A stretch of 64,000 bases of DNA, from positions 4,927-68,926 of the forward strand of contig VYBO01000043.1 of NCBI GenBank assembly GCA_009844405.1. The letters run 5' to 3'. Of this stretch, positions 11,823 to 60,738 are shown piece by piece. Both the position numbers and the translations under genes were made by a program. The stretch's first letter is position 1, and each line of letters opens with the position of its first letter. This DNA is from Acidimicrobiaceae bacterium. GTDB lineage: Bacteria > Actinomycetota > Acidimicrobiia > Acidimicrobiales > Aldehydirespiratoraceae. The notes beneath the pieces were generated by a model. That model was not told the DNA's origin and did not search any database. It saw only the letters and a program-made list of their open reading frames with translations.

Positions 11823-12003
11823 GGGACGCTCCCAACCGCGACTCTAAAGGCAGTCAGCCATGGCTTGTCGAATCCGCTGATTAGCGCTACTTCAAAGGAT
11901 CTCGGCTGGTCAACTAGGGGTAAAATTTTGCGTTTACCTTATTGATTTGAGAATCAACTCAAACTATTGCGCATTTGCGCAGGGACAATCGAGCGCGACT
12001 GCT

Positions 12004-14231: not shown

Positions 14232-15779
14232 CTACTCGCTCCCGGCCGGGGCGAGGCCCAGGCGCTCGGCCAGGCCGATGCGCTGGAGCTTGCCGGTGGG
14301 GCCCTTGGGCAGCTCGTCGAGCACCAGGATCCGGCGGGGAACCTTGAACGCGGCCAGCGACTGCGACAGGAACCGGCGAAGCTCCCGCTCGTCGACGGAA
14401 CTCCCGGAGACGGCCGCGACCGCCGCGGCCACCTCCTCGCCCAGCTTGGGGTGGGGCACGGCGAAGGTGACCGCCTGGGCCACCGACGGGTGGCCCAGCA
14501 GGGCCTCGTCCACCTCCAGCGGGGAGACCTTCTCGCCGCCGCGGTTGATCTGCTCCTTGAGGCGGCCGGTGAGGAACAGGTAGCCGTCGTCGTCGACGTA
14601 GCCCTCGTCGCCGGTGCGGAACCAGCCGTCGGTGAAAGCGGCCGCGTTGGCCTCGGGGTTGTTCTCGTAGCCGTCGATCACGGTCGGGCCCTTGATCGAC
14701 ACCTCTCCCCGTTCGCCGGGTGGCAGGGGCCGGTTCCGGCCGTCGAGCACGGCCAGCTCGATGCCGGCGGGGACCCCGACCGACCGGGGCTTGGCCACCG
14801 CCGGGGGCAGAGGGTTGGCGCACATCTGGTGAGTGGCCTCGGTCATGCCGTAGGCCTCGATCACGGGCGCGCCGAACAGCTCGCCCAGCTCGTGCAGCAC
14901 CGGGGCCGGAAGAGACGCGGAGGAAGACCTCACGAAGCGCAGGCCGGCGGAGCGGGCCGTGTCGCGGTGGCGGTCGGCGCGGGAGAGCACCATCTGATGC
15001 ATGGTCGGGACCGCGGTGTAGTAGCTGGGCTCCAGGGCTTCGAGCTGAGCGAAGAACCTGAAGGCGTCGAAGCCCTCGGTGCAGGCGACCGCGCCCCCCG
15101 CCGACAGCGGCGCCAGCAGCCCGGCCAGCAGCCCGTGGATATGGAACAGCGGCATCACCTGCAGCGACCGGTCTCCGGGAGTCAGGGCGAGCGACACGGC
15201 GATGCCCGCCGCCGAGCGGGCCAGGTGCCGTTGGCGCAGCGGGACGATCTTGGGCCGCGACGTGGTGCCGGAGGTGTGCAGGACCAGGGCCACGTCGTCG
15301 GCGACAGGATCGCCCGGAGCGGGCGCGCCGCCCTCCCCGGACCCGGCGACCAGATCGAGCGCACCGGCACTGCCGTCGACCGAGCCGGCCAGCGACACCG
15401 GCAGCACGGCGGCGCCCGCCTCGCGGGCCGCGGCCCGGGCGACGGCCCCGGAGTCGTCGGGCAGGGTGACCAGGGCCTTGGCGCCGAGGTCGTCGAAATA
15501 GAAGCGCAGTTCGTCGGTGCGGTACTTCGGGTTGAGCGGCGCGGCGCATCCGGTGCAGGCCGCGGCCAGGAAGGCGAGAGCCATCTCAGGCCCGTTGGGA
15601 ACGACGATGGCGATGCGGTCGGCCGGGCCCAGGCCGAGGCCTCGGAGCCGGCCCGCGAGCCGGTCCACCTCGGACCGCAGCTCGGCGTGGGTGAGCACCG
15701 ACCCGTCGGGCGAAACGATCGCCGGCGCGCCGTCGGCCCCGGTACCGAGCAGGCCTCGCAGCGTTTCGCCTGCCGTCAC
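14232..15779 (-). CDS. AMP-dependent acyl-CoA synthetase/ligase
   Basis: AMP-binding signature LVLHTSGTTSRPK, and later GWFRTGDEGYVDDDGYLFLTGRLKEQINRGGEKVSP. The GTG at 15779 overlaps the panE stop (GTGA). The track ORF 14232..16550 is over-extended. Confidence 0.85.
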   Translation of the reverse strand: MTAGETLRGLLGTGADGAPAIVSPDGSVLTHAELRSEVDRLAGRLRGLGLGPADRIAIVVPNGPEMALAFLAAACTGCAAPLNPKYRTDELRFYFDDLGAKALVTLPDDSGAVARAAAREAGAAVLPVSLAGSVDGSAGALDLVAGSGEGGAPAPGDPVADDVALVLHTSGTTSRPKIVPLRQRHLARSAAGIAVSLALTPGDRSLQVMPLFHIHGLLAGLLAPLSAGGAVACTEGFDAFRFFAQLEALEPSYYTAVPTMHQMVLSRADRHRDTARSAGLRFVRSSSASLPAPVLHELGELFGAPVIEAYGMTEATHQMCANPLPPAVAKPRSVGVPAGIELAVLDGRNRPLPPGERGEVSIKGPTVIDGYENNPEANAAAFTDGWFRTGDEGYVDDDGYLFLTGRLKEQINRGGEKVSPLEVDEALLGHPSVAQAVTFAVPHPKLGEEVAAAVAAVSGSSVDERELRRFLSQSLAAFKVPRRILVLDELPKGPTGKLQRIGLAERLGLAPAGSE

Positions 15780-16825
15780 CGGCCCGCCTCGGGTCTCCCG
15801 CTCTTGTTCGCTGCGCTCACGGGCCGCTCGGGCCACGGCCTCGCAAGCTCGGCCTCTAGGCGGCGGTTGAGCAGGGAGGCCAGCCCGTAGACGGTGCTGA
15901 TGGCCGGGGTGGGCACGCCGGTGATCCCGCCGAGTTCGACGAACACGCCGACCAGCGGGTCGAGCTCCAGCGGCCGGCCGGCCTCGGAGTCCTGGAGCAT
16001 CGAAGTCTTGTGCTCGCCGACCGCCTCGGCCCCCGCGATGCGCTGCTCGACGCTGACCCGGATGCGCACGCCGAGCGCCTCGGCGATCCTGCCGGCCTCG
16101 GTCATCATCTGCGCGGCCAGTTCCCGGGTGGCCGGCGTGCGGCAGATGCCGGCCAGCGTCGCCCCGGTGAGTGCGCTGATCGGGTTGAAGGCCAGGTTGC
16201 CCCAGGCCTTGACCCAAAGGTGCGAGCGGATGTCGGTGAGCACCCTCGACTTGAACCCGGCCGAGGTCAGGGCCCCGGCCAGCGCCTTGACCCTCTCCGA
16301 CTTGGTGCCGTCGAGCTCGCCCACCGGGAAGCGGTCGCCCTCGACATGGGTGACCACCCCGGGTGCGGTCTTCGCCGCGGCCGGGTAGGCGATGCAGGCC
16401 ACGATCCGCTCCGCGTCGATGGCTGCCGCGAGCACGCCGTCGGGATCCAGCGCCTCGAGCCGTCGACCGGCGTGGGGACCGCCGTGGCGCTGGAAGTACC
16501 ACCATCCGATGCCGTTCTGCACCGGCACGATCATGGTGCCGTCGTCGCACAGCCGTGCGAGCTCATGGGCCACAGCCGCGATCTGGTGGGCCTTGAGAGC
16601 GAGGATCACCGCGTCGTGGGTGCCGAGCGCCCCGAAGTCGTCGGATGCGTCCAGATCGGAGGCGACGGTCTCGGTGCCGTCAAGCTCAACCAGCCGCAAG
16701 CCATCGCGCCTGATGGCGTACAGGTGCTCGCCTCGTGCAATGACGCTCACGTCATGTCCGGCCACAGCCAGGCGGGCGGCCATCATCCCCCCGATCGCGC
16801 CCGCGCCAACGACACAAGTCCTCAC
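15776..16825 (-). CDS. panE: 2-dehydropantoate 2-reductase (ketopantoate reductase)
   Basis: N-terminal Rossmann VRTCVVGAGAIGG and the ApbA/PanE C-terminal domain are present. GTG at 16825. The last ~25 codons are encoded by the dispersed element. Confidence 0.8.
   Translation of the reverse strand: MRTCVVGAGAIGGMMAARLAVAGHDVSVIARGEHLYAIRRDGLRLVELDGTETVASDLDASDDFGALGTHDAVILALKAHQIAAVAHELARLCDDGTMIVPVQNGIGWWYFQRHGGPHAGRRLEALDPDGVLAAAIDAERIVACIAYPAAAKTAPGVVTHVEGDRFPVGELDGTKSERVKALAGALTSAGFKSRVLTDIRSHLWVKAWGNLAFNPISALTGATLAGICRTPATRELAAQMMTEAGRIAEALGVRIRVSVEQRIAGAEAVGEHKTSMLQDSEAGRPLELDPLVGVFVELGGITGVPTPAISTVYGLASLLNRRLEAELARPWPERPVSAANKSGRPEAGR
15794..15859 (-). repeat. MIRU/REP-like dispersed element, short form (copy 1)
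   Basis: The reverse complement reads ctagaggccgagcttgcgaggccgtggcccgagcggcccgtgagcgcagcgaacaagagcgggagac. The core is nearly identical to the copies at 24436, 24482 and 26578. Confidence 0.9.
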
Positions 16826-22798: not shown

Positions 22799-24253
22799 TC
22801 AGGAGCGGACGAACACGGTCTTGGTGCGGGTGAAGAACTCGAGCGACGACTCCCCGCCCTCGGCCCAGCCCGCGCCGGAGTGCCCGTAGCCCTCGAAGGG
22901 CACATGGAAGGGGACGCCGGTGAGGGGCGAGTTGACCTTGACGGTGCCGGCGTGCGAGCCCTTCCAGAAGCGGCGGGCCACCGCGATGTCGCCGGTGACG
23001 ATGCCGGAGGTGAGGCCGTAGGCGGTGGCGTTGGCCATGGCGACGGCCTCATCGATGTCGCTCACCGGCTCGAAGGTGACCACGGGTCCGAAGATCTCCT
23101 CGGTGGTGAGCGGCCCGGCGGCCGGATTCACCAGCAGTGCGGGCGCCACCCGGCCGTCGCGCCAGCCGCCGGGCTCGGGGCGCACCACGTCGGAGGCCTG
23201 ATGCTCGGCCAGGGACACGTAGTCCTCGACCCGGCCCGCCTCGCCGTCGCTGACCAGGATCCCGAGCTCGTCGCGGCCGGACGTGTCGGTCATATCGCTC
23301 AACCGGGCCTTCAGCCGCGCCAGCAGGTCGTCGTAGACGTCGGTGTGCACGAGCAGCCGTCCCGCCGCGGTGCAGATCTGGCCGTTGTTGCGGAAGCTCG
23401 AGGCCACGATGACGTCGGCCGCCTTGGCGAGGTCGGCGTCGGCCCACACCACGATGGTGTTCTTGCCGCCCAGCTCGGCCTGGAACGGCACCTCCATCCG
23501 CAGCCGGCTCCTGATGTCCACCGCGGCCTCGTAGGAGCCGGTGAGGCTCACGCCGTCGAGTTCGGGGGCGGACAGCAGGGAGTCGGCGATCACCGAGCTC
23601 CGGCCGATCGTGGCGTGCAGCAGGCCGGCGGGCAGGCCGGCGTCGAGCAGGGTGGCCGCGGTCATCAGGCCGGTGACGCCGGCGTTGGTGGACGGCTTGA
23701 AGACGACTGCGTTGCCGGCGGCCAGGGCGGCCGACAGCTTGCGGATGGGGATCGTGAACGGGAAGTTCCAGGGGGTGATGAGGGCGACGGTTCCGAGGGG
23801 CTCGATGAGCGTGAAGACTTCCTCGTCGAAGTCGGTGGAGTAGGTGGCGCCCAAGCGCCGGTAGCCGAGCTCGGCGTAGTAGTCGAGCACGGCCGCCCCC
23901 TTGGCCACCTCGACGCTGGCCTCCGAGGCCGGCTTGCCCATGTCGGCCGAGATGATGGGGGCCAGCTCGTCGGCCCGCTCGAGAAACAGCCCGGCGGCAC
24001 GGTGCAGCACCTCGGCCCGGGCTGCGGGACCCGCCGCCGCCCAGTCCGGCGCGGCCCGGGCGGCTGCCTCGTATGCGGTGCGGACGTCTTCGGGGCCGGC
24101 GCTGCGCATCACGGCCAGCACCCGGCCGTCGCTCCGGCTGACCAGCTTCTGCTCGGGCCCCGAGCCGGGCCGGATGGCGCCGTCGATCAGGATGCCGACC
24201 TCGTCGGCGTCGCCGCTGCCGTCCACGGTGATCCGAGCGGGTACCAGCGTCAT
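22799..24253 (-). CDS. NAD(P)-dependent aldehyde dehydrogenase family protein
   Basis: 484 aa with FPFTIPIRKLSAALAAGNAVVFKPS, ELGGKN and NNGQICTAAGRLLVH (catalytic Cys region). Confidence 0.9.
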   Translation of the reverse strand: MTLVPARITVDGSGDADEVGILIDGAIRPGSGPEQKLVSRSDGRVLAVMRSAGPEDVRTAYEAAARAAPDWAAAGPAARAEVLHRAAGLFLERADELAPIISADMGKPASEASVEVAKGAAVLDYYAELGYRRLGATYSTDFDEEVFTLIEPLGTVALITPWNFPFTIPIRKLSAALAAGNAVVFKPSTNAGVTGLMTAATLLDAGLPAGLLHATIGRSSVIADSLLSAPELDGVSLTGSYEAAVDIRSRLRMEVPFQAELGGKNTIVVWADADLAKAADVIVASSFRNNGQICTAAGRLLVHTDVYDDLLARLKARLSDMTDTSGRDELGILVSDGEAGRVEDYVSLAEHQASDVVRPEPGGWRDGRVAPALLVNPAAGPLTTEEIFGPVVTFEPVSDIDEAVAMANATAYGLTSGIVTGDIAVARRFWKGSHAGTVKVNSPLTGVPFHVPFEGYGHSGAGWAEGGESSLEFFTRTKTVFVRS

Positions 24254-24376
24254 GGTGTGCCTCCACCAGCGTGCGCATCGCCCGCGAGGCGGGCGCGCCG
24301 CGCACGACCGCGCCTTGTATACAGGACGCCGTATACCCTAGGCCGACCGGTTCGAGACTTGCCAACGAGAGGACCC

Positions 24377-24520
24377 AGAGGCCGAGCGGGCGAGCGACAC
24401 TCCATGAGGAAATCGAGAGGCCTTCAGCGAGGCCCCGGGGCCGAGCGGCCCGTGAGCGAAGCGAACAAGAGCGGGAAGCACGGCCCGAGCGGCCCGTGAG
24501 CGCAGCGAACAAGAGCGGAG
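24377..24520 (+). repeat. MIRU/REP-like dispersed element, long form plus an extra tandem core (copy 2)
   Basis: agaggccgagcggg...gcgaggccccggggccgagcggcccgtgagcgaagcgaacaagagcggga is followed by a second core, ggcccgagcggcccgtgagcgcagcgaacaagagcgga. Confidence 0.9.
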
Positions 24521-24528
24521 AACACCAG

Positions 24529-25773
24529 GTGCACGATCGCTCCGGGCCGGGTCGAGGCAGCCTCGTGAGCAGTTCGGGACACGGCACCGGATTCGCCTCC
24601 CTGGTGACGGCCACCCTGGTGGTGACCGCCGCCGCCAACCTCAGCCCGATGCTGGTGAGCGCCCTGGCGGTCCAGATCCAGGACGACCTAGGCATCGGGG
24701 AGGCGGAGATCGGGATGACCGTCAGCGCGTTCTTCTTCGTGGGCGCCCTGACCTCGGCGCTCTCGGGGCGGATGGTGGAGCGCATCGGGCCCGCGGCAGG
24801 ACTGCGCCTCTCGACCGCGGTGGCCGGCGCCGTCCTGGTCGTCACCGGCGCGCTGGGCCGGTCCTGGCCGGCGCTGCCGGTCCTCGTGGGTCTGGCCGGC
24901 CTGGCCAACTCGCTGGGACAGCCGGCTGCCAACCTCTACGTGGCGAGGGGGATCTCCAGCCGGCGTCAGGGACTCGCGCTCGGCATCCAGAAGTCCGGAA
25001 ACCCGGCCGCCTCCCTGCTGGCCGGGCTGGCCATCCCGACGGTCGGGCTGACGATCGGCTGGAGTTGGGCCTTCGTGCTCGGCGGCCTGCTCGCTTTCGG
25101 GGTGACACTGGGCGTGCCGGCCGCGGGCCGGACGCCGCCGGGCGCGGGCCGCGGCGGTGCAGCCACCGACCGTCCGCCGGTCCGGCCCCGCCCCGACGTC
25201 GCCGTCCGGCTGCTGATCGCGGTGACCTGCTCCACCTGCCTGGCCGCCATGGGCTCGATGGCGCTCAGCTCGTTCTTCGTGCTGTCAAGCGTGGAGACCG
25301 GCGTCGACGAGGCCGCGGCCGGGATCCTGCTCATGGCGGGAAGCGTGGTCGGGATCGCTTCGAGGCTCGCGCTGGGCGCCGGCGCGGACCGGGCGTCGCT
25401 GAGCCCGCTCGACATGCTCACCGCGATGTTCGCGGCGGCGGCGCTGGCCTTCGTGGGACTGTCGACAGGGTCCGAGGCGATGCTGTACGCGGCCATGCCG
25501 TTCGCCTTCGCGACCTCGTTCGCGTGGCCGGGCCTGTTCCATCTGGCCATGGTGCGCCAGAACCCGTCGGCGCCGGGCGCGGCCACCGGCATCACCTTGA
25601 CGGGCAACCTCGCCGGAGCGGTGTGCGGCCCGCTGCTGTTCGGCCTGCTGGTGGAGGCGACCAGCTACGGCTGGGCCTGGAGCTTCGCGGCCATCACCTC
25701 GGGGGCGGCCGCGGCCCTGATGGCCGTGACCAGCCGCCTGATCGCACATCGCACGGCGAGCGGCCGCGGGTAG
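24529..25773 (+). CDS. MFS transporter
   Basis: About 12 hydrophobic segments. The start is placed at the GTG after the dispersed element (VHDRSGPG...). The track ORF start at 24271 reads through the repeat and is rejected. Confidence 0.75.
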   Translation: MHDRSGPGRGSLVSSSGHGTGFASLVTATLVVTAAANLSPMLVSALAVQIQDDLGIGEAEIGMTVSAFFFVGALTSALSGRMVERIGPAAGLRLSTAVAGAVLVVTGALGRSWPALPVLVGLAGLANSLGQPAANLYVARGISSRRQGLALGIQKSGNPAASLLAGLAIPTVGLTIGWSWAFVLGGLLAFGVTLGVPAAGRTPPGAGRGGAATDRPPVRPRPDVAVRLLIAVTCSTCLAAMGSMALSSFFVLSSVETGVDEAAAGILLMAGSVVGIASRLALGAGADRASLSPLDMLTAMFAAAALAFVGLSTGSEAMLYAAMPFAFATSFAWPGLFHLAMVRQNPSAPGAATGITLTGNLAGAVCGPLLFGLLVEATSYGWAWSFAAITSGAAAALMAVTSRLIAHRTASGRG

Positions 25774-25854
25774 GGGAGCGCGGGTCGGCGTCTCGGCTTC
25801 CTGTCGGGATGGGCCAGCCTGTAACATCGGCCAACCGCCCATGGAGGACTGATC

Positions 25855-26517
25855 TTGAGCGACAAGGACGGTGAGCAGCCTCTACGAGAAGTTGTCGCAG
25901 GCCAGCTTCGCTTGATGATCCTCGACGGAGAGCTGAAGCCGGGCCAGCGGCTGGTCGAGGGCCAGCTCGCGGAGCGGCTGGGGGTGAGCCGCAACCCGGT
26001 ACGCGAAGCCATGCGATCGCTGGAGGCCACCGGCCTGATCGAGGTGGTGCCCCGGCGGGGCGCCCACGTGTCCGCCATCGACAAGTGCGAGGTTCACCAC
26101 ATCCAGCAGATCCGGATCCTGGTGGAGGGATACGCCGTCGAGCAGGCCGCCATGCGCCAGGACCACGACAGCATCGAGCGGATCCGTCAGTGCATGGAGG
26201 AGGGCCGGCAGGCGACCGAACGGGGGGATGCGGTCACAGCCGCCCTGTGTCACCGGGACTTCCACATCGCGGTGGAGAAGGCGGCCGGGATCCCCTTCCT
26301 GCAGCAGGTGCTCGACCCGCTCCGCCAGCAGACCGAGCTGGTGTTCTCGGTGGTGACCGACAGCCGTGGCGACATCACCTGGGAGGAGCACGAGGACATC
26401 TGCAACGCCATCGCATCGGGCGACCCCTCGCAGGCCCGTGAGATGAGCCGCAGGCACATCATCAACGCGCTGGAGTCGTTCCAGACGGCCGTCGAGTCGA
26501 AACCGGCGACCCTCTAG
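25855..26517 (+). CDS. GntR-family transcriptional regulator, FadR/FCD subfamily
   Basis: N-terminal wHTH (LKPGQRLVEGQLAERLGVSRNPVREAMRSLEATGLIEV) plus a helical FCD C-terminal domain. TTG start is preceded by GGAGGA. Confidence 0.9.
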   Translation: MSDKDGEQPLREVVAGQLRLMILDGELKPGQRLVEGQLAERLGVSRNPVREAMRSLEATGLIEVVPRRGAHVSAIDKCEVHHIQQIRILVEGYAVEQAAMRQDHDSIERIRQCMEEGRQATERGDAVTAALCHRDFHIAVEKAAGIPFLQQVLDPLRQQTELVFSVVTDSRGDITWEEHEDICNAIASGDPSQAREMSRRHIINALESFQTAVESKPATL

Positions 26518-26624
26518 AGGCCGAGCGGACGAGCGGACGAGCGCGCACTCGTGAGGAACTTGACGACGCACTCAGCGAGGCCGTGGCCCGAGCGGCCCGT
26601 GAGCGCAGCGAACAAGAGCGGGAA
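26516..26624 (+). repeat. MIRU/REP-like dispersed element, long form (copy 3)
   Basis: It starts within the TAG stop of the GntR gene: ctAGAGGCCGAGCGG...gaggccgtggcccgagcggcccgtgagcgcagcgaacaagagcggga. Confidence 0.9.
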
Positions 26625-26675
26625 ACACACCGCTGCACGGCGAGGCGGCACCACCCGCCCAAGCCCATTCTGAGT

Positions 26676-28454
26676 TTGACACGACATCCGCCCACAGCCG
26701 GGAGTGACCCGGCAGGCGTGCGGGAAGAGGCCGAGCGGTGGCTGGCCGCCGATCCCGACCCCGGGACGCGGGCCGAGCTCCAAGGCCTGCTGGACGGCGA
26801 CCCCGCCGAACTCGAACACCGCTTCTCCGGGCGGCTCGCCTTCGGCACGGCCGGCATCCGGGGTCCGATGGGGGCCGGGCCGAGCCGCATGAACCGCGTC
26901 CTGGTGAGGATGGTGACCCGGGCCCTGACTGAGCGGCTGCTGCAGGACGGAACGCCCGATGGAGCGGTGATCGTCGGGCACGACGCCCGCCACAACAGCA
27001 AGGACTTCGCCACCGACACGGCCCGCGTGCTGGCCGGGCGGGGTATCGGCGTGAGGATGCTGCCACCCGAGCTGCCCACGCCGGTGCTGGCCTTCGCGGT
27101 CAAGAATCTCGACGCTCCGGCCGGGGTGATGGTCACCGCCAGCCACAACCCGCGCTCCGACAACGGCTACAAGGTCTACTGGCGAGGCGGCCGCCTGCTG
27201 GCCGCACCGATCGACGAGGAGGTCGGCCGGATCATCGACCGCACCGCCCCGCCGGCGGAGTCCGACCTGGCCCCCGGCGACGATCCGCTCATCACCACCG
27301 CCGGCGACGAAGCGGTGGAGGCCTACCTGGAGGCGGTGACGGCTCTACTGGCGCCGGGAGGGCCCCGCTCGGTGCGGATGGCCTACACACCGCTTCACGG
27401 CGTGGGCGCCGGCACGTTCCTGCGGGCCGTGGCCAAGGCGGGGTTCGACCCGCCGGCGCTGGTGGCCGACCAGGCCGAACCCGACCCCGAATTCGCCACC
27501 ACACCGTTCCCCAACCCCGAGGAGGCCGGCGCCCTCGACCGGCTGCTGCGGCTGGCCTCCGACACCGGCGCGGACGTGGCCCTGGCCCACGACCCCGACG
27601 CCGACCGGCTGGGGGTGGCTGTGCCCGACGGGGGGCGGTGGCGGCCGCTGACCGGCGACGAGACGGGCTGCCTGCTTGCCGAGCACCTGCTCCGCCGGTC
27701 CGCGCCCGGCGACGGCGGGGGGCTCCGACGTCCGAGGCTGGTCATCAACACGGTCGTGTCGTCGCGCCTGCTGCCCCGCATCGCGGACGGCCACGGCGCG
27801 GACTGGGCCGAGACGCCCACCGGCTTCAAGTGGATCATGAAGGCCCGCTCGCAGCTGCCCGGCCACGAGCTGGTGCTGGGCTACGAGGACGCTCTCGGTT
27901 ACGCGGTGGGCGACGTGGTCCCGGACAAGGACGGCATCGGCGCGGCGCTGGCCATGGCCGAGCTCGTGGCCCACCTCAAGACGGAGGGGCGAGCCCTTCC
28001 CGATCTGCTCGACGACCTCCACCGCCGCCATGGGGTGCACGCCACCGGGCAGCGCTCGGTCCGCTTCGAGGCGGCTCCCGGCGACGAGCCGCCGATGGCC
28101 CGCGCCATGGCTGCGCTGCGGGCCGACCCGCCGACGGAGCTGGCCGGAGCCGCAGTGACCGCGGTGCACGACCTGGCCGGCGGATCGGAGCACCTGCCGC
28201 CCGTGGACGTGGTCGTTCTCGAGCTCTACGGCGCCGAGGCCAGGGTAATCGTCAGGCCGAGCGGGACCGAGCCCAAGATGAAGGTCTACGCCGAGGCGGT
28301 CGTGGCCCCGCCCGCCGGCGCCGGCCGCGCCGACGACGAGTGGCTGCGCTCGGCCCGAGTCGAGGCCCGCACGACGATGGCGGCGGTGCTCGAAGCGGCC
28401 GTCGGCCATGTGGCCAGGCCCGAGTGCCCGCGCGCCGGCCGGGGTCAGCACTGA
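26676..28454 (+). CDS. Phospho-sugar mutase (phosphomannomutase/phosphoglucomutase family)
   Basis: Active-site MVTASHNP and the metal-binding region HDPDADRLGV, with four-domain PGM/PMM architecture. The start is ambiguous (TTG 26676 or GTG 26718). The track start at 26583 lies inside the repeat. Confidence 0.85.
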   Translation: MTRHPPTAGSDPAGVREEAERWLAADPDPGTRAELQGLLDGDPAELEHRFSGRLAFGTAGIRGPMGAGPSRMNRVLVRMVTRALTERLLQDGTPDGAVIVGHDARHNSKDFATDTARVLAGRGIGVRMLPPELPTPVLAFAVKNLDAPAGVMVTASHNPRSDNGYKVYWRGGRLLAAPIDEEVGRIIDRTAPPAESDLAPGDDPLITTAGDEAVEAYLEAVTALLAPGGPRSVRMAYTPLHGVGAGTFLRAVAKAGFDPPALVADQAEPDPEFATTPFPNPEEAGALDRLLRLASDTGADVALAHDPDADRLGVAVPDGGRWRPLTGDETGCLLAEHLLRRSAPGDGGGLRRPRLVINTVVSSRLLPRIADGHGADWAETPTGFKWIMKARSQLPGHELVLGYEDALGYAVGDVVPDKDGIGAALAMAELVAHLKTEGRALPDLLDDLHRRHGVHATGQRSVRFEAAPGDEPPMARAMAALRADPPTELAGAAVTAVHDLAGGSEHLPPVDVVVLELYGAEARVIVRPSGTEPKMKVYAEAVVAPPAGAGRADDEWLRSARVEARTTMAAVLEAAVGHVARPECPRAGRGQH

Positions 28455-28465
28455 CGGCGGGCTGA

Positions 28466-31400
28466 TCACACGGTGAGGGCCTGCCAGCAGACGAGGTGGA
28501 CGTCGGCGGCAGTGATCTCAGGGAGGGGCTCGGGCACCGGCTGGGGCTGCAGGCCCTGCTCGTCGATCACCCGCAGCACGGCCTCGGCCTGCGCGGCGGG
28601 CTGCTCCGCCGGCCTCAGGGCGGCTCGCACCAGGCGGGTGACGCGCTCGGTGTAGGGCGCCTGAAGGCTGTCGATGGCTCGGGCCACGTCGTGCTGGGTC
28701 ATCGACGGCGGAGGATTGGAACGCACGATCTCGGCCGCCTGTCGCAGGGCGGCAGGTATGCGGGGCTCGAGGTTGGCCTTGTCGGCGAAGTGGTTCCAGC
28801 GCGCCACGATGTCGGCGCGGGCCGCCTCCCATGCCGTGAAAGCCGTCTCCAAGGTCGCGTCGTCGAACTGGCGCGGCGTCTCGAACCCGTCGGCGGGCCG
28901 GGCGAGCCACAGGCATTCGAGCGTGTCGCTGCTGACCCGGCCCGATGCGCCCACGAACCTGAACTGCGGGTTCGGGTCGTCGCCCACCCTGGCGCAGAAC
29001 ACATGCCCGGACTCCCCGCCGGGGTGTGCCGCCATCCCCGAGCCGGTGCCCCAGGGCAGGCGCTGCAAGACGCGATGCATGTCGGGATCGTCGACGGCGC
29101 GCCGGAGCTCGGCCCTGAACTCCTCGCCGGACTGTGCGCCGAGATCGGTGCCCCCGCGCTCGAAGATCGCGGCGTCCTCGGCGCGGAGGCGCTCGATCTC
29201 GGCCCGGGTCTGGCTGAAGCTGCGATCGAGGCTGCGCTCCTGGTCGGGTATGACCTCACCGACTCCGATGGAGGCCGCAGCTTGGGCAATCTTGCGGTTC
29301 AGCCGCTCCTCGAGGCCCAGAAGCTCGTCAAGGCGCCTGTCGGGAAACACGCAGCTGATGAACACTTCGCGGTGCCTGGAGCCGATCCGGTCGATGCGAC
29401 CGTGGCGCTGCACGAGCCGCATCGGGTTCCACGGCAGGTCGTAGTTGACGATGTGGCGGGCCTGTTGGAGGTTCACGCCCTCGGCAAGCACGTCGGTGGT
29501 GACGAGAATGTCATAGAGGTCGGGATGGTCGAGCCCCGGCGCCGCGGTGCGGGGGGCGAAGCTCAGCGCCGGATCACGGGCATGCCCCGAGCCGCCGGTG
29601 TGCCAGGCGATCCTGCCTCGGTAGGCGGACAGTCGCTCGTCTCGCACCACGGCATCCTCGAGGAAACCGACGATCCATTCCACCGTGTCGGCGAAGTAGG
29701 TGAACACCAGCACTTTGCGGCGGTCGCGGGTGTCGTCGGCGCCTATGCCGTCGCGCTCGGCCTGCTGGACGACGCCGGCCAACTCATCGGCCAGCGCGGC
29801 CAGAGTGGGATCGTCGGAGCGCGTCACCGTCTGTGCCTGCCGGGCGAAGTCGCTCAGCAGTCGGTGGTCGCGGCGGGCGTGGGCCACCATCTTGCCGACG
29901 TCGAATCCGGCGGCATCCTCCAGATCCTCGTGGTGGGCGTCGAGGTACTTGTCGATCTGTTCCAGGTCGTCGGAGTCGGTGCTCGCCCAGTCGGCTATCG
30001 CGCCGCCGGTGGCGACTCGGCCGTGGAGCTCGGCGAGTTCCGCGAACGCCAGGCAACCCTCGGCCATCCGCCGGCAGGTCTTCGCGAACGCCCACGGGGA
30101 AGACTCGAAGCGCTTGAGCAGGCCCGAACGCAGCAGCCCGGCGAGCTGCAGCTCATATGCGTCCGGGTTGTCGCGGCCGAGCCGGTAGTTGGAGGGCACG
30201 TAGCGCGCCAGGGTCAGCACCGCGTCGTCGGTGTCGGGGGCTGCGTCCGGGTTGAGCGCGGCCGCAAGCCGCTCGAAGAAGCCGGGCAGCACGCCGTCCA
30301 GGTCGTAGGTGACCTTGTGGACTCTCGGGGTCGGGAACACGATCTGGTGGTCCGCGCCGTCGATGCGCACCGTGTCGTTGGCGTAGTGCTTCTTGACGAA
30401 CGAGCGCGTGCGCCGGACGGCCACCGCGTCGAGCACGTCGAACAGGTGCTGGGGTGACAGGTCGTTGGGATCCTGGCGCATGGCCTCCGCGAAGTGGTCG
30501 CGCAGCGAGCGGATCCCGTCAGCGGCGAAGGTGCCGTCGTTGCGCAGGAAGTATCCGAGCAGGTGGTAGAGGTCCCAGAGGCTGTTGTTGACCGGGGTAG
30601 CGGTCAGCAGCACCAGCTTCTTGGGCGGGAGTCCGGCCAGCAGCCTCCGCAGCGACTCGGCCCTCTGGGTGGACGGGTTGCGCAGATTGTGGGCCTCGTC
30701 CACCACGATGAGGGCGTAGTTGTGAAGGTCGGGCCCGAGCGGGCGCGACGGCTGGCGCCCGGCCTCTTCGGCATGTTCGGCCCTCTCGCGGTTGAGTCTC
30801 GGATCGTCGGCGAGCGCGTCGAACGACACCAGGGTCATCGGCAGGTTGTGCTGCTGCCTGAAGGCCTCCCAAGGGCCGTCGCGCAGCGTCGCCGGGCAGA
30901 TGACCAGCACTCGCTGGCGGCGTTCGACGGCGGCTTCCTCGATGAGCTTGCCCGCGAAGTAGGTCTTGCCCAAGCCGACCTCGTCCGCGACGAGCACGCC
31001 GTTGTAGGCGTCGAGCAGCTTTCGGGCGCGCCACAGGCCGTCCTTCTGGAACGAGGTGAGCTCGATCGTCGACCGCGGCAGGGCGGCCTCGTCGTCTTCG
31101 GCCAGTTCGCGGCCGTAGCGCTCCCACAGCATCCGCAGATAGATGAGCTGCGGAGGGTGCGGCTCGAAGCGGGGAGCGAAGATCGAGGCGAGGTCGTAAT
31201 CGGCGGCGGAGCCCCAGAGCCCGTCGAACCATTGGGCCACAGCCGTCACCGTGTGGGGGGTGTAGTTGCCGAGGTTCAGCTCGAGGTTCGTCGAGAGGCC
31301 GGCGCGGGTGAAGTTCGACGACCCCGAGACGACTCCGTGGGAGTGGGTGGCCACCAAGAACGCCTTGCCGTGAAGGAACCTGTCCTCTAGGCGGCGCACC

Positions 31401-31816
31401 TGCACTCGGCCGCTGCGCAGCCAGTCCAGCAGCCGGCGCGCCGTGCTGTCGGCCTCGACGGTGAACCCGAGCAGGTCGCGGTCGGCGGCGAGCGCCTCCT
31501 CGTGGGAGTCGAGCAGGTCGCCGACTCGGCGCAGTTCGGCGCGGTGCGAGTTGGCCGGCTCGCGCTTGAGCGCACGTCGTCGGCTCTCCGGCGGCGCGGG
31601 CTCAGCGCCGAGCAGCAGCCGCACGCCTGACAGCTTGTCGAGCGAGTCTGCGAGCAGCGAGTAGCCACCGACGTTGAAGTAGGCGGTGGCGACGTCGAGC
31701 CGAACGTCGTGGGCGAACCCGTCGGCGGCGTGGCCGATGAACCCGTTGAGTGCATCGGCCACCGTCGCGCCGTGCTGGTTGACAGCCAACTCGGGCTTGG
31801 CCTCCCCGCTACTCAT
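28466..31816 (-). CDS. PLD-family (HKD) nuclease domain fused to SNF2-family helicase
   Basis: N-terminal HGKAFLV...GSSNFTRAG is a single HKD motif. It is followed by SNF2 motifs LVADEVGLGKT, VVDEAHNLRN and LLTATPVNNSL, and a helicase-C region, LAEGVNLQQARHIVNYDLPWNPMRLVQRHGRIDRIG. Confidence 0.85.
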   Translation of the reverse strand: MSSGEAKPELAVNQHGATVADALNGFIGHAADGFAHDVRLDVATAYFNVGGYSLLADSLDKLSGVRLLLGAEPAPPESRRRALKREPANSHRAELRRVGDLLDSHEEALAADRDLLGFTVEADSTARRLLDWLRSGRVQVRRLEDRFLHGKAFLVATHSHGVVSGSSNFTRAGLSTNLELNLGNYTPHTVTAVAQWFDGLWGSAADYDLASIFAPRFEPHPPQLIYLRMLWERYGRELAEDDEAALPRSTIELTSFQKDGLWRARKLLDAYNGVLVADEVGLGKTYFAGKLIEEAAVERRQRVLVICPATLRDGPWEAFRQQHNLPMTLVSFDALADDPRLNRERAEHAEEAGRQPSRPLGPDLHNYALIVVDEAHNLRNPSTQRAESLRRLLAGLPPKKLVLLTATPVNNSLWDLYHLLGYFLRNDGTFAADGIRSLRDHFAEAMRQDPNDLSPQHLFDVLDAVAVRRTRSFVKKHYANDTVRIDGADHQIVFPTPRVHKVTYDLDGVLPGFFERLAAALNPDAAPDTDDAVLTLARYVPSNYRLGRDNPDAYELQLAGLLRSGLLKRFESSPWAFAKTCRRMAEGCLAFAELAELHGRVATGGAIADWASTDSDDLEQIDKYLDAHHEDLEDAAGFDVGKMVAHARRDHRLLSDFARQAQTVTRSDDPTLAALADELAGVVQQAERDGIGADDTRDRRKVLVFTYFADTVEWIVGFLEDAVVRDERLSAYRGRIAWHTGGSGHARDPALSFAPRTAAPGLDHPDLYDILVTTDVLAEGVNLQQARHIVNYDLPWNPMRLVQRHGRIDRIGSRHREVFISCVFPDRRLDELLGLEERLNRKIAQAAASIGVGEVIPDQERSLDRSFSQTRAEIERLRAEDAAIFERGGTDLGAQSGEEFRAELRRAVDDPDMHRVLQRLPWGTGSGMAAHPGGESGHVFCARVGDDPNPQFRFVGASGRVSSDTLECLWLARPADGFETPRQFDDATLETAFTAWEAARADIVARWNHFADKANLEPRIPAALRQAAEIVRSNPPPSMTQHDVARAIDSLQAPYTERVTRLVRAALRPAEQPAAQAEAVLRVIDEQGLQPQPVPEPLPEITAADVHLVCWQALTV

Positions 31817-32498
31817 CGGGCTCGATCACCTGCCAGCGCTGCTCTCTGAGCACACCGGCAGCTATGTCCGGGGACCGCCGCACCGCCGCTCGAAGCTGGC
31901 CGTCTCGAAATCGCTGCCGCGACTCGTTCAGAGCCTTCTCCCACCCAGGCCGCGGCTCCACGAGCCGCTCAAGGATGCAGAACTCGATCAAGTCCTCCAG
32001 ACAAGGGCGGTATCGCCGCCCACCGACGGGGAAGTGCAAGTCATCAGGCTTGTGCTTGGGGCGTCCACATCGCTCCAGCATGTCCTGCACCGCGACTGAC
32101 TCGCCATGGAGATGAAAGTGAGCCTCGGGGTACTCATTCGGAGGATCCCGGGTGTAGTCATAGGTCAAGATCGGCTCTGAATTGGTGGCGTGCATGAGCT
32201 TATAGCTGCTCTTGGTCGTGGTGAGAAACCGCTGCGATTCGTCGAGCGCGAGCGTGTGCAACAGGCGCAACGCCAACAGGGCCGGGGCCTGAGATAGGGT
32301 CAGCGCTACTGGGTCACCGCGTGGCTTCAGTCGGGAAATCTGGTTCCCAATCGCAGCGCGACCGCTTGCCTCCATCAGCACGGACAGGCAGAGACCGTGC
32401 GTGAGGGTGCGATTCAGCGCCTTAGTGAGTTCGCCAGCAAACTCCCGAGCTTGGCGATCGAGGTTAGGCTGGCGACGGCTCGGCGAAGGTCGAGACAA
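31809..32498 (-). CDS. Hypothetical protein, 229 aa, translationally coupled to the helicase
   Basis: The stop overlaps the helicase ATG by 8 nt (GATGAGTAG). No recognisable domain. The start is uncertain (TTG at 32498 or internal). Confidence 0.5.
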   Translation of the reverse strand: MSRPSPSRRQPNLDRQAREFAGELTKALNRTLTHGLCLSVLMEASGRAAIGNQISRLKPRGDPVALTLSQAPALLALRLLHTLALDESQRFLTTTKSSYKLMHATNSEPILTYDYTRDPPNEYPEAHFHLHGESVAVQDMLERCGRPKHKPDDLHFPVGGRRYRPCLEDLIEFCILERLVEPRPGWEKALNESRQRFRDGQLRAAVRRSPDIAAGVLREQRWQVIEPDE

Positions 32499-32673
32499 CG
32501 AACCAGGCCTCGCGGGCCGTCTCGTTCGTAAATCGTCCGGCTCGAGCCTGATCTTGCAGTGCCTCCCAGCTGTAGCCAGCTTCAGCCAACGCGTTGCTGA
32601 TCAGTTCCTCGATCCCCGCCTCGTCGAGGACTTCGACCTCAATGTCGGCGTAGGGATCTTCGTTGGCGCTCAT
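32464..32673 (-). CDS. Small acidic protein, 69 aa, unknown function
   Basis: ATG at 32673 is preceded by a strong GAGGAGGAG Shine-Dalgarno sequence. The protein MSANEDPYADIEVEVLDEAGIEELISNALAEAGY... is highly acidic. The track start at 32748 is less likely. Confidence 0.5.
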   Translation of the reverse strand: MSANEDPYADIEVEVLDEAGIEELISNALAEAGYSWEALQDQARAGRFTNETAREAWFVVSTFAEPSPA

Positions 32674-32935
32674 TGGCTCCTCCTCACTCAAGCCGTAGCG
32701 GCCACCCGGCCTCGGACTGACGTGCATCATCCTATGACGGTGTGACATCGACTGGAGCCAGCCTTCGTCGCACCCAAGCGAACGACACGATTATAGCCGT
32801 TCACGATCTCGGCCTCGCTCAACCTCAAAGTCGTCGTAGAGGTCATCAACGAGATCGGCGTCCTCGCAGGAGTTCATCGCCCCCTCCGCCTCGTTGGTCA
32901 TGGGGGTACGGGGTCGCACTACTTCGCGGCGCACC

Positions 32936-33778
32936 CTAACGGGAGATGGCAGCGGACCAGCGGCGAAAATGAACGAGGACCGCGGCATGGTGCTCGGCGT
33001 AGCGGTCGGGGCGCCTGGCATCGAAGGTGCTGTACAGCACGGCCAGATCGTCCTCGTCGAGGCCATAGAGATGCGCCACGCACGCATCGAGCTCGGCAAT
33101 CAGATCGTCCTTGGCCTTGCGATCGTTGACGGAGCCGACCGGCACTCCTACATTCCTGGCCCAGTCGGCGAAGCGATCGTCCACCGCAGCCAGCCGCCCC
33201 GCAATCTCGACGACGCGGTCGCGAACTGGGTGGCCCTCGCCCGGGTCGGGCACCGGCAGCGCATTGAGGACATGGAAGTTCAGGCTCATCTCGACGGTCC
33301 GCCGGGCACACCAGTCCATAATCATCCAAGCCAACAGCCCAAGCACGAACGCCTCGTCGCGACAACCACCACGGGTTTGGAGGAGGTATGGACCCTTGTT
33401 GGTGATGACGACCCGAGGCGGGATGAGCGCCGCGACGATGGTACGGGTGTTGGTCGGGTTAGTCACGTCTCGGAAGGCGATGCGCGGATTGCGACACGGC
33501 AGGGTCGCTGGGTCAAGGAGAACCGGCTGGCGTAGTTCAGCGAAGGCTGACCGGACAGTCCGGCTTTGCGACTGGCGCTTCTGCTGAAGGTTAGCCGTGA
33601 TGCTCACAGCATCAGCGCTGTCATAGAAGTCGCCGGTGTCGGGCTGCCAGAGGTTGAAGCTCTTGCCCGCGTAGACGGGCCAGACATCGCCAGTCCTCGG
33701 CTCGGACGGTTTGCTGTCATCGCTGCTGGGCCTCCCTGAGTTGCCGGTAGATCGCGAGGACCTCGTCCCGGCGGTCAT
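32936..33778 (-). CDS. Methyltransferase C-terminal cassette, paralog 2 (possibly non-functional: no start adjacent to conserved WPVY)
   Basis: ...VWPVYAGKSFNLWQPDTG...RIAFRDVTNPTNTRTIVAALIPP...LDACVAHLYGLDEDD is about 60-65% identical to the ORF at 33717..34478. The nearest in-frame ATGs are at 33778 and 33862, both overlapping the paralog-1 3' end. Confidence 0.5.
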   Translation of the reverse strand: MTAGTRSSRSTGNSGRPSSDDSKPSEPRTGDVWPVYAGKSFNLWQPDTGDFYDSADAVSITANLQQKRQSQSRTVRSAFAELRQPVLLDPATLPCRNPRIAFRDVTNPTNTRTIVAALIPPRVVITNKGPYLLQTRGGCRDEAFVLGLLAWMIMDWCARRTVEMSLNFHVLNALPVPDPGEGHPVRDRVVEIAGRLAAVDDRFADWARNVGVPVGSVNDRKAKDDLIAELDACVAHLYGLDEDDLAVLYSTFDARRPDRYAEHHAAVLVHFRRWSAAISR

Positions 33779-34478
33779 CCCACTGCCCCGGACGCCCGAA
33801 GGTGTCGTACACGACGGCGATGTCGTCCTCGTCGAGGCCGTAGAGGTATGCCACGCACGCATCGAGCTCGCACAGGGCCTCTACCCCCCCCCCGGTCGAT
33901 GTCGGGCCAGCTACTGCGCCCACGGGCACACCGACCTCGGCGGCCCAGCCCTCCAATCGCTCGTCGCGCGCGGCGAGGCCTCCCGCCAGTTCGATGATCC
34001 GGTCACGCACCGAATGGCCCTCTCCCGGATCAGGTATTGCCAGAAGATTCAGTTGATGAAAGTTGAGGTGGAGCTCGAGCGTCCGACGCGCTTGCCAATC
34101 GCAAGGCATCGAGCACAGCACTCCCAGCACGTATGCCTCATCCCTAGCGGATCCCGCTAGTCGAAGCAGGTAGGGGGCCTGGTTCGCCACGACGCGATCC
34201 GGCGGGATGAGAGCGGCCACGATCGTGCGGGTGTTGGTCGGGTTGGTCACGTCGCGGAACGCGATCCGGGCTTGGCGGCAGGGTAGCGTTGCTGAGTCAC
34301 GCAGTACCGTCTCGGGCAACTCCGCGAACGCCGACGATTTCGTACCGCTTTGCGATTGGCGCCTGTGCTGAAGGTGCTCTGTGATGGTCGCGGCGTCGAC
34401 GCTGTCGTAGTAGACGCCCGTGTCGGGCTCCCACAGGTTGAACGACGTGCCCTTGTACACCGGCCAAACCCGGCTCAT
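33717..34478 (-). CDS. Methyltransferase C-terminal cassette, paralog 1 (split off or translationally coupled)
   Basis: MSRVWPVYKGTSFNLWEPDTG...RIAFRDVTNPTNTRTIVAALIPP...LDACVAYLYGLDEDD. The ATG at 34478 sits in an ATGA overlap with the third-frame stop of the upstream methyltransferase reading. It contains a G10 tract. Confidence 0.6.
   Translation of the reverse strand: MSRVWPVYKGTSFNLWEPDTGVYYDSVDAATITEHLQHRRQSQSGTKSSAFAELPETVLRDSATLPCRQARIAFRDVTNPTNTRTIVAALIPPDRVVANQAPYLLRLAGSARDEAYVLGVLCSMPCDWQARRTLELHLNFHQLNLLAIPDPGEGHSVRDRIIELAGGLAARDERLEGWAAEVGVPVGAVAGPTSTGGGVEALCELDACVAYLYGLDEDDIAVVYDTFGRPGQWDDRRDEVLAIYRQLREAQQR
33884..33893 (-). repeat. Homopolymer C10 (G10 in gene sense) inside cassette paralog 1
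   Basis: cta + 10 c + ggtcgat, read directly. It encodes the GGG of ...PTSTGGGVEAL. Confidence 0.98.
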
Positions 34479-34503
34479 CGCTCAGTCTCCGCGCTGGAAG
34501 CCG

Positions 34504-34715
34504 CCGCGCCGTCGTCGTTCATGAACCTGTCCCGGTCGCCGGTGGCGTCGAGTTCGCGGACCGGGCGGAAGCGCCATCGTCGTTCACGAAGAGGCTCCGG
34601 TCGTGGGTCGCGTGGAGCTCTGCGACTGCTCGGAAGCGCCACGTCCGTCGTCCCGGAAGAACCGGTGGCGGTCGGTCGTTGCGTTGAGATCGCCTTGGAC
34701 CGGCCGGAATCTCCA
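34504..34715 (-). repeat. Three diverged tandem units (74, 65, 73 nt) each encoding the WRFR..EL.AT.DR..F..DDG motif in a different reading frame
   Basis: Units lie at 34715-34642, 34641-34577 and 34576-34504 in gene sense. Manual three-frame translation is given in the findings. Confidence 0.85.
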
Positions 34716-34724
34716 TCTCCGACG

Positions 34725-34735
34725 CCCCCCCCCCC
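34725..34735 (-). repeat. Homopolymer C11 (G11 in gene sense) inside the methyltransferase
   Basis: gacg + 11 c + gcagg, read directly from the sequence. Confidence 0.98.
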
Positions 34736-35206
34736 GCAGGCGCGTCGCGCTCATCGAGGTCGCTGCCGTCGAATCTTGGATGCTGCTTCATCTTGCGCCA
34801 GACTCGGAACGCGGCCCGGTTCGGCACCTGCGGGAAGGCGGCCGACTTCGACCAACTTCGGAACTCGGACACCGGCACCAGCTCCGGGCCAGCCTCAAGC
34901 ACTTCCCGATAGTGGACCTGCGAGGATGCTGGACCGGGATAGATGGCTACAAGCGGCTCCGAGGCTTCCGCTTCAAGGCCACCCCCTGGGATTGGTTCGG
35001 GCGTTGGCAGTGCAGATCGCGATGAGGGCAGTTGTGTACCGTCCGTCCAAGCCGTCGAAGGCCCATTGCCCTGTGTTGAGGCAGGTAGCGGCCGAGATGA
35101 CCGCGCGTGAGTGAGCAGCGCCACTGTGTAAGCGTTGTGGACTTCCTCGAAGACCCACCCCTTCTGATTGATGAGCGTGAGCACCGACACCTTGGGCTTT
35201 GCTTGC

Positions 35207-35230
35207 AGAGAGAGAGAGAGAGAGAGAGAG
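35207..35230 (-). repeat. (AG)12 on plus strand = (CT)12 in gene sense, inside the methyltransferase
   Basis: Read directly: gcttgc(ag)x12 atttattcgg. It is translated as SLSLSLSL in the track ORF. Confidence 0.98.
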
Positions 35231-51418: not shown

Positions 51419-51506
51419 CTCGCACCGGACCCAGTATGCCAGCGCACCGATCCACGTCCGGGCACCCCCTCCCCCGGGAGGATGTCCGACCTCCAGAAGC
51501 GAGCGA

Positions 51507-51628
51507 GGATCCGCCCGCCTACCCGCTCGGCCCCGGCTCCCGCTCATGTTCGCTGGCGCTCACGGGCCGCTCGGGCCACGGCCTCGCCCGCACGAACTGG
51601 ATCCGCCCGCCTACCCGCTCGGCCTCTG
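51507..51628 (-). repeat. MIRU/REP-like dispersed element, long form with duplicated 26-bp flank (copy 4)
   Basis: ggatccgcccgcctacccgctcggcc occurs at 51507-51532 and 51599-51624, flanking the core tcccgctcatgttcgctggcgctcacgggccgctcgggccacggcctcgc. Confidence 0.9.
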
Positions 51629-60607: not shown

Positions 60608-60645
60608 CGGACGACGCAGTATGGAGCGGTGCCGCCGTCGGAGTA

Positions 60646-60738
60646 TCTCCCGCTCTTGTTCGCTCCGCTCACCGGCCGCTCGGGCCACGGTCTCGCCAGT
60701 ATGAACCGGAATCGCTCGCCTGCCCGCTCGGCCGCTAG
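60646..60738 (-). repeat. MIRU/REP-like dispersed element, long form (copy 5)
   Basis: The reverse complement reads ctagcggccgagcgggcaggcgagcg...gcgagaccgtggcccgagcggccggtgagcggagcgaacaagagcgggaga. Its CTAG supplies the TAG stop of the STAS gene. Confidence 0.9.

Follow-up and report, generated by a model that had tools for sequence, protein, structure and literature searches.

A probable modular miniature inverted-repeat transposable element family with orientation-dependent retention in sponge-associated Acidimicrobiia

The window, a stretch of 64,000 nucleotides (nt) with about 70% G+C, corresponds to positions 4927-68926 of contig C1 of a 3.35-Mb draft genome (150 contigs; labelled G000) from the genus Candidatus Aldehydirespirator, and carries six loci of a short dispersed repeat between its genes. 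The original prediction, made from the letters of the window, had described these loci as one family, and all six were present at or near the positions that it had given. A 47-nt core matched exactly at 15796-15842 (minus strand) and 26577-26623 (plus strand), and with three mismatches at 60648-60694 (minus strand); no match occurred in any of 100 shuffles of the window. The inner 37 nt of the core were also found at 24438-24474 and 24482-24518, as two tandem cores with a period of 44 nt, which agreed with the extra tandem core proposed for this locus, and a looser probe detected a degenerate copy at 61558-61578. The proposed arm start, (C)TAG(A/C)GGCCGAGCGG, was seen at 26514, 60739 and 15859. 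Five of the six loci were in sense to the downstream gene, as had been claimed, the exception being 61556-61608. The six loci probably belong to one family of a non-autonomous, modular miniature inverted-repeat transposable element (MITE) of sponge-associated Acidimicrobiia, whose retention depends on its orientation.

The syntenic region was compared between the window genome and five relatives with 80-92% nucleotide identity. The copy at 15793-15859 (minus) was a short-arm copy, in which the left end GAGGCCGAGCTTGC was directly followed by the core. This stretch also served as the final 27 codons of a 2-dehydropantoate reductase-like gene lying upstream (...RLEAELARPWPERPVSAANKSGRPEAGR, followed by the stop), the TGA of which overlapped the GTG start of an acyl-CoA ligase gene (GTGA). 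The orthologous locus had two cores in G014 and a remnant (CTAGAGGCC abutting TAG) in G011, and was empty in G009. The copy at 24377-24523 (plus) occupied a divergent spacer and consisted of a long left arm (about 40 nt) and two tandem cores; it was in sense to an MFS-transporter gene, 5 nt before the first possible start of that gene (GTG at 24529). This locus was occupied in five of the six syntenic genomes and empty in G009; it had one core in some species and two in others, so that the number of tandem cores varied between species, as had been anticipated.

The copy at 26518-26675 (plus) was a complete, old insertion of 158 nt, with a left end, a long arm, the core at 26577-26623 (GCGCAGC mini-hairpin motif at 26603-26609) and a diverged right arm at 26624-26675. 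It sat exactly between the native TAG of a GntR gene (26515-26517) and the TTG start of a phosphohexomutase gene (26676). The orthologous site was precisely empty in G011, G014 and G015 (TAG-TTGAC or TAA-TTGAC, the hyphen marking the junction), and G027 had an orthologous copy. Two details of the original prediction were corrected at this locus: the insert ended at 26675 instead of spanning 26516-26624, as the precise empty sites of the three relatives showed, and the CTA of the leading CTAG, which had been assigned to the element, was flanking target DNA. At the empty GntR stop site of another relative (G012, L122), three tandem 17-nt units, TTTCGGCGACCTCATAG, repeated the last codons and the stop of the gene.

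The copy at 51497-51628 (minus) had a short left arm (29 nt), a core with a 1-nt insertion (51538-51585) and a right-end remnant. A perfect 26-nt direct repeat of left end plus arm (51507-51532 and 51599-51624) bracketed this core; a second left-end piece therefore occupied the place where the right arm would be expected. The copy at 60645-60738 (minus) had no right arm, and was inserted just after the native TAG (60735-60737) of an anti-sigma-factor antagonist (STAS) gene. This site was occupied in the window genome only; G011, G014, G015 and G027 had CCTAG followed by 0-6 nt, with a separate insertion in the orthologous spacer of G027. The degenerate, core-only copy at 61556-61608 (minus) was antisense between a receiver-domain gene (61154-61534, plus) and tRNA-Pro(CGG) (61627-61701, plus); it was shared with G011, where the core was intact, and was absent from the four other relatives. 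The tRNA-Pro was the sole match in the window to Rfam at gathering thresholds, and at E ≤ 1 no Rfam model matched within 24300-26750 or on the elements. As no description of the family was found in the searchable literature either, the earlier view of an intergenic, dispersed and unrecognised family stood. Elsewhere in the window, 10000-12000 and 30000-38000 (lower G+C, 0.64) had no counterpart in the five syntenic relatives and are likely islands.

In the draft genome, blastn-short gave about 285 core matches, 279 of which (at least 28 nt) were kept; they fell into 248 loci, with about one copy per 12 kb, and this genome-wide census bore out the claim of a dispersed repeat family. An exact scan of public genomes for the core gave at least 116 loci, and among the matches listed all were in metagenome-assembled genomes (MAGs) of Acidimicrobiia. 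Many of the listed core-bearing MAGs were sponge-derived and named Candidatus Aldehydirespirator or Candidatus Poriferisodalis, which NCBI assigns to different families. Among 401 sampled genomes of the class Acidimicrobiia, searched with up to three mismatches, the core was present in two genera of the window's own family, in one genus of another order (six genomes with 1-22 copies each) and, as a single copy, in one further family, whereas over 100 other genomes of the order to which the window belongs had none. The same 37-mer occurred in two orders. Such a patchy distribution is as expected from the horizontal spread of a mobile element, and the presence of the core in a second order of the class points to such a spread.

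Alignment of all cores with their flanks resolved a unit in which the left end, GAGGCC(G/C)(A/C)GCGG, is followed by a left arm and then by a core of 44-47 nt, to which a right arm may be joined. The left arm was about 29 nt, about 40 nt or absent, with the left end consequently starting 41, 52 or 14 nt before the core; the right arm was 48 nt (ATGACCACCC..CAATCCGCGCTCGCTC, ending in ..CCGCGCTCGCTC). Full copies, with the 41-nt arm and the right arm, were the most numerous (94), followed by copies with the 52-nt arm and an unrecognisable right arm (72), copies with the 41-nt arm without right arm (38), core-only copies (28) and the 14-nt form (20). Full-length copies were about 136 nt long and near-identical to each other. 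About 45 further right ends were found at contig ends, which indicates that the assembly breaks inside the full-copy subfamily. A search by similarity for the right arm in the copies that appeared armless recovered it in 15 of 165; synteny revealed that some of these copies do have right arms, diverged beyond recognition, and the class without right arm is therefore mixed. Two to four tandem cores with a period of 43-45 nt were present at 23 loci, and an array on contig C147 had at least five core units. A region of G011 (L141-L144, local positions 24027-24255) had three arm-plus-core units in tandem with a 91-nt period, which implies that whole arm-core blocks, and not cores alone, can be amplified. 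The sense strand of the forms that persist was 62.8% purine with a GC skew of +0.17, against 50.2% purine and a skew of 0.00 for coding strands.

Full copies had imperfect terminal inverted repeats (GAG..GCGGAT and ATCCGC..CTC): GAGGCCCCGCGGATAGG matched the reverse complement of the right end, GAGCGAGCGCGGATTGA, at about 11-13 of 17-21 positions, GAG and GCGGAT included. Before the initial G of the element the flank was C (78%), T (69%), W, A (75%); after its terminal C it was T (67%), W, A (67%), G (79%). A perfect 3-bp flank repeat was present in 60 of 93 full copies (TTA in 14, TAA in 9 and TAT in 8; others included TTG and ATA), and a perfect 5-bp repeat, with the terminal G and C counted as flank, in 44 of 93. 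The target is the palindromic pentamer CTWAG, with TWA, or possibly all 5 bp, duplicated. Precise empty sites were found for 26518-26675, 60645-60738 and about 15 further loci. The terminal inverted repeats and target-site duplications of its full copies were the grounds for classifying the element as a MITE. The IS5 and PIF/Harbinger superfamily is characterised by TWA duplications within CTTAG-like sites, and PIF and mPIF prefer CWCTTAGWG and duplicate TTA.

Candidates for a parent element were sought among insertion sequences (IS) and among pairs of MITE ends 0.2-5 kb apart; all of these pairs were false or belonged to separate copies. An IS5-type IS of 1060 bp on contig C98 (6604-7663), with 23-bp inverted repeats CTAGACGAGTAGTTCCAAGGGGT and near-identical ends in a relative (L160), was rejected, its ends (CTAGACGAGTAGTTCC) being unlike those of the MITE. 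The end pair at C103:1153-2926 was also rejected, as it enclosed an ISL3-family element with unrelated ends between two copies; this element (C103:1245-2650; 449-aa open reading frame (ORF); ends GGCTCTCCGCGTTTTAGGGTG) abutted one copy of the repeat, and a full MITE lay 150 nt beyond its far end. An IS1380-family IS was found directly beside MITE copies (L165:1107-2738 in G015; 440-aa transposase, NF033539, 279 bits). Its ends were CCTGGATCCACCGG, its 5-bp duplications were CTTAG or CTCAG, i.e. the pentamer of the MITE, and it had 12 copies in one relative; in the window genome its ends alone were assembled (C27:50782 and C111:197), one of them at a contig end. As it has this pentamer in common with the MITE but termini of another kind, it makes a weak candidate for the mobiliser. 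The same type of IS1380 was also inserted centrally in a near-perfect palindrome, AGCGAGAGCCCCTCAGGGGCCCTCGCT (L166:972-1000 and 2588-2616), which may be another repeat family.

Orientation relative to genes was biased over the whole genome (112 sense and 41 antisense; p = 8e-9), with 45 loci between divergent and 31 between convergent genes, and the bias first noticed in the window was also replicated in other genomes. The response differed between classes: full copies were evenly distributed (sense to antisense 21:22; divergent to convergent 14:17), and all other classes together were not (91:19 and 31:14; Fisher p = 7e-5 for sense and antisense, p = 0.057 for divergent and convergent). Full copies inserted regardless of gene orientation. 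Among the 116 listed loci of other genomes, copies without the canonical right arm were again predominantly in sense (53:19; p = 8e-5), and copies with it were not (7:7). The sense bias was equally strong for well-preserved and poorly preserved cores.

The bias followed the flanking genes against the strand majority of their surroundings (15:5), and within the window elements on both strands followed their local genes (5 of 6), which makes the direction of transcription a better correlate than that of replication. On these two grounds replication was rejected for now as the cause of orientation. On the complete chromosome of G002 (OZ220727.1), cores were mostly on the plus strand at 0-1.1 Mb and mostly on the minus strand at 1.13-3.25 Mb, a replichore-like pattern that was stronger than expected from gene-strand bias alone; G001 was left out of this comparison. 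The split in G002, together with the strand-specific hairpin motif described below, would suit an element that is mobile as single-stranded DNA and takes its orientation from replication, such as repetitive extragenic palindromic (REP) sequences with their REP-associated tyrosine transposases (RAYT) or the palindrome-associated transposable elements (PATE) of IS200/IS605. This explanation is very improbable: the Y1 transposase (PF01797) had no match in 17 genomes of the genus, the window genome included, among 27 searched, the duplications of full copies varied by site, the element was not palindromic, and its orientation followed adjacent genes even against the strand of the neighbourhood and within one window. 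The REP-like label given to the family in the original prediction was dropped for the lack of a palindrome and of Y1/RAYT transposases in those 17 genomes.

The six syntenic genomes had 2-12 cores each, in 35 locus rows that corresponded to about 21-25 distinct sites, most of which were occupied in only one or two genomes; the turnover of sites between the species of the genus was rapid. Among the insertions were clean ones of about 149 nt, with diverged right arms and NNAG flank repeats, and others of 68-102 nt without right arm. Private insertions were in all contexts (6 sense, 1 divergent, 2 antisense and 4 convergent), and shared sites were in sense (14 rows) or between divergent genes (5 rows) and never antisense or convergent. 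Counted as distinct loci, the contrast was about 8:0 for shared and 7:6 for private sites (one-sided Fisher p of about 0.03, calculated by hand). The unbiased young subfamily and this contrast between private and shared sites indicate that insertion was neutral with respect to orientation and persistence was not.

Conservation was concentrated in the left end and the core. In an orthologous pair (G027:14274 and G011:71116) the left end (12 of 12) and the core (47 of 47) were identical, and the arms differed at about 28 of 90 positions; the same pattern of conserved left end and core with diverged arms was found at the 24377 locus across five genomes. Among 155 non-young copies of the window genome, core positions 9-29, 31-38 and 40-46 were conserved in at least 90%, and position 30 was free (C 64%, A 26%, G 8%, T 3%). 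One free site in an otherwise invariant block argues for position-specific constraint rather than for blanket homogenisation. A process by which the core is kept uniform through gene conversion among about 250 copies or reinsertion at hot spots, with the orientation bias caused by the mechanism by which armless forms insert, is unlikely. It would account for the core variants that differ between orthologues at one locus (locus C; CCCTCAGGTCGC vs. CCCGTGAG-CGA), for the A and C variants of position 30 that were swapped between G000 and G014 at the 24377 locus, for spacers that were hit repeatedly (60645 in G000 and the separate insertion in G027) and for core-only units that insert or amplify alone. 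However, conversion would even out position 30 as well, the arms beside the core were too diverged for conversion tracts, and neither private insertions nor full copies had the sense bias that oriented insertion would produce.

Core positions 27-33 read GCGNAGC, position 30 being the N; the motif as DNA, as in d(GTGAGCGNAGCGAAC), would form a putative mini-hairpin, which the core flanks would lengthen by G23:C37, T24:A36 and tandem G·A pairs. With any N, GCGNAGC is an extraordinarily stable DNA mini-hairpin with two G-C pairs and a sheared G·A pair and a melting temperature of 70-76 °C; nearest-neighbour rules fail to account for its stability, and the motif is found at single-stranded DNA replication origins (Kimoto and Hirao review, PMC13037366). 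In the subfamily of the other order, the compensatory change G27A plus C33T was dominant and all four loop bases occurred. Among 61 distinct cores, the pair 27:33 was GC in 40, AU in 14, GU in 1 and other in 6, a covariation that was not reached in any of 500 shuffles. The conserved block GT-GA-GCGNAGC-GA-AC, with its strand-specific putative mini-hairpin, is most likely an interaction site for protein or nucleic acid, and its partner most likely either the transposase or a host factor.

It is possible, if doubtful, that the left end and core have been exapted as a regulatory signal of the sense strand under purifying selection, i.e. a protein- or RNA-binding site or a mini-hairpin of single-stranded DNA or RNA in leaders and operon spacers, with the MITE as a mere vehicle. 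Identity of left end and core between orthologues with about 30% arm divergence, the position-specific constraint, which leaves one loop base free and includes a compensatory pair, and the restriction of old copies to sense positions or positions upstream of genes would all fit, as would the preference for divergent over convergent spacers (31:14, against 14:17 for young copies) and the occurrence of the 37-mer in two orders. Yet distances to starts or promoters were not fixed, the 61556 copy had decayed in the window genome with its orthologue intact in G011, and the genes downstream of the window copies were functionally unrelated (CoA ligase, MFS transporter, phosphohexomutase and two unknowns); ascertainment by the core also exaggerates its conservation. 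A bolder form of this proposal deserves still more reserve: the left end and core, with their two GGCC(C)GAGCGG boxes and the mini-hairpin, might be a strand-specific cis-signal exapted genome-wide, read on the non-template DNA or the transcript by a conserved factor, under selection ahead of more than 100 genes in each genome and carried horizontally by the MITE between two orders of sponge symbionts.

The overlap between elements and stop codons was as described in the original prediction in part only. The TAG stops at 26515-26517 and 60737-60735 did overlap the junction and that at 51613-51611 was inside the arm, but the stops of the GntR and STAS genes were not donated by the element. At orthologous empty sites the GntR gene already ended in TAG or TAA directly before the next TTG, and the STAS gene in CCTAG; the element therefore landed on these stops. 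The appearance of donation arises because CTWAG contains TAG, and in a genome with 70% G+C such sites survive mainly at gene ends. Within the window, the element supplied new C-terminal codons and a stop at two places only: at 51611-51613, where a TAG of the arm replaced the native tail (...PSIGLAQPQRPSG before the stop, vs. ...PSIGPPR in the element-free G027), and at 15776-15860, where the whole element was translated as the 27-residue tail, the stop of which overlaps the next start as GTGA. For 105 non-full copies the upstream gene was co-oriented; its stop was at the junction as nTA-G in 16 and as T-GA in 5 (hyphen at the junction), and inside the element in 26. The compatibility of the element with open reading frames, as proposed, was real, and extended ORFs.

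Since its RPVSAANKSG frame ran into the next start as GTGA at 15779 and as ATGA near 60607, stopped 2 nt short of the TTG at 26676 and was in frame with the downstream gene at 24529, the element might be regarded as a coupling cassette of the type of mycobacterial interspersed repetitive units (MIRUs), which insert at start codons with an ORF coupled by a -4 overlap (PMC12548453). A small ORF would then start in the arm (GGAG-N6-ATG/GTG, RTGAGG motif) or at the GTGA of the core, run through this frame to the next start and bridge two cistrons so that their translation remains coupled. The sense bias and the variable number of tandem cores also favour a cassette of this kind, which nevertheless is quite unlikely. 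Over the whole genome, with start codons taken uncurated, downstream genes had no preferred frame relative to the core (46:39:28; p = 0.11) and the spacing from core to start varied from 3 to more than 60 nt, so that coupling is regarded as incidental; counts of -4 overlaps by frame (30/46 vs. 14/28) did not differ once xTG-A codons, a confounder, were allowed for. Core variation was not biased to synonymous changes, with position 30 giving A, E, G or V, full copies had the inverted repeats and duplications that MIRUs lack, and the stop-start junctions were already present at empty sites. The likeness to MIRUs noted earlier thus held for sense orientation in operons and for tandem variation, but not for a fixed -4 coupling, and it did not extend to the inverted repeats and duplications.

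For the non-autonomous MITE with orientation-dependent retention, the course after insertion would be one of filtering. Antisense copies and copies between convergent genes would disappear, and sense copies upstream of a gene or in an operon spacer would persist, with their arms lost or scrambled and left end and core positions 9-46 unchanged. In sense orientation, the transcript would contain a purine-rich, stop-poor and weakly structured spacer through which ribosomes could read, and a copy read in this way could serve as a C-terminal tail, as a new stop codon or as a bridging frame. In antisense orientation, the element would present a C-rich, G-poor untranslated stretch that is suspected to be polar (Rho-type) in operons. 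Such putative polarity would explain why antisense copies are lost, but neither why the core is invariant nor why convergent spacers have a deficit of copies; both would be better explained if left end and core were useful on the sense strand.

Several points weigh against this reading. The genes came from a crude caller based on G+C at third codon positions (GC3), run on the element-masked genome, and their start codons are unreliable; the retention test comprised about 21 loci in one 65-kb region. A core-based census misses decayed copies, which favours the finding of a conserved core and could inflate the orientation bias. The draft genome and the fetched loci (12 IS loci inspected) yielded no autonomous element whose ends match; DDE_Tnp_4 (PF13359) was absent from 27 genomes, including the whole genus, and DDE_Tnp_1 from several element-rich genomes, one of them complete. 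For armless copies, a search for duplications at fixed offsets gave nothing, and a floating search found 18 flank repeats where 11.1 were expected (p = 0.02), a weak excess; these copies could be independent insertions or the result of insertion followed by deletion. The mini-hairpin was proposed after the covarying pair had been seen, and its A/T form may go back to one event that the subfamily inherited. Folding of the full consensus and the core as RNA or DNA gave no stability in excess of shuffles, neither the core nor the element as a whole was unusually stable in ViennaRNA (z from -1.6 to +1.4), and RNAalifold on 62 long-arm copies found neither structure nor covariation in the arms.

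New in these results are the contrast in orientation between young and persisting copies and its replication in other genomes, together with the dependence of context on age, the profile of the CTWAG target, the finding that position 30 is free, the reading of the core as GCGNAGC and the distribution over two orders. The element breaks assemblies, lengthens predicted ORFs, rewrites gene tails and fills operon spacers, and the annotation of sponge-symbiont genomes therefore needs a model of it. It also provides a natural experiment in which insertion looks neutral to orientation and retention depends on it, leaving an invariant block of 38 nt. If that block were functional, a mobile element would be spreading a regulatory or structural motif across a guild of symbionts, and the GCGNAGC mini-hairpin would gain a role in a cellular genome.

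Among known systems, MITEs of the IS5 superfamily (derivatives of the IS1031/IS427 group and the Tourist-like elements of PIF/Harbinger) resemble the element in small size, lack of coding capacity, high copy number, imperfect inverted repeats beginning with GAG, TWA duplication in CTWAG and filled and empty sites between relatives. Unlike them, the element had its internal core as the most conserved part, tandem amplification of that core and many one-ended copies, and no parent IS was found, DDE_Tnp_4 being absent from the genus. BOX of Streptococcus pneumoniae is an intergenic, co-transcribed and mobile repeat with the order boxA-boxB(n)-boxC and a central module of about 45 nt. It shares the build of three modules with a variable number of central ones, but comes from an unrelated host without sequence relation, and it conserves its pairing outer modules where the present element has variable arms and an invariant centre. 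Correia elements of Neisseria and ERIC/IRU are MITEs that are transcribed with their neighbours and affect expression, with some copies fixed; they form long hairpins that RNase III or IHF recognises, whereas the present element has no long hairpin or structure independent of orientation. Rickettsia palindromic elements are likewise tolerated in reading frames (here as the 27-residue tail at 15793-15859), but the present copies are mostly intergenic and not palindromic. MIRUs share the actinobacterial host, operon spacers, sense orientation, varying tandem arrays and ORFs that touch gene ends (PMC12548453), and differ from the element in its inverted repeats and duplications, its lack of -4 geometry and frame bias, and its occurrence in divergent promoter regions as well. 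The known natural examples of the mini-hairpin GCGNAGC are in single-stranded DNA replication origins and a phage promoter, and here it lies, as a putative hairpin, in a dispersed repeat; core positions 27-33 match the motif exactly, with N free and the outer G:C pair changed to A:T in a subfamily (Hirao; PMC13037366).

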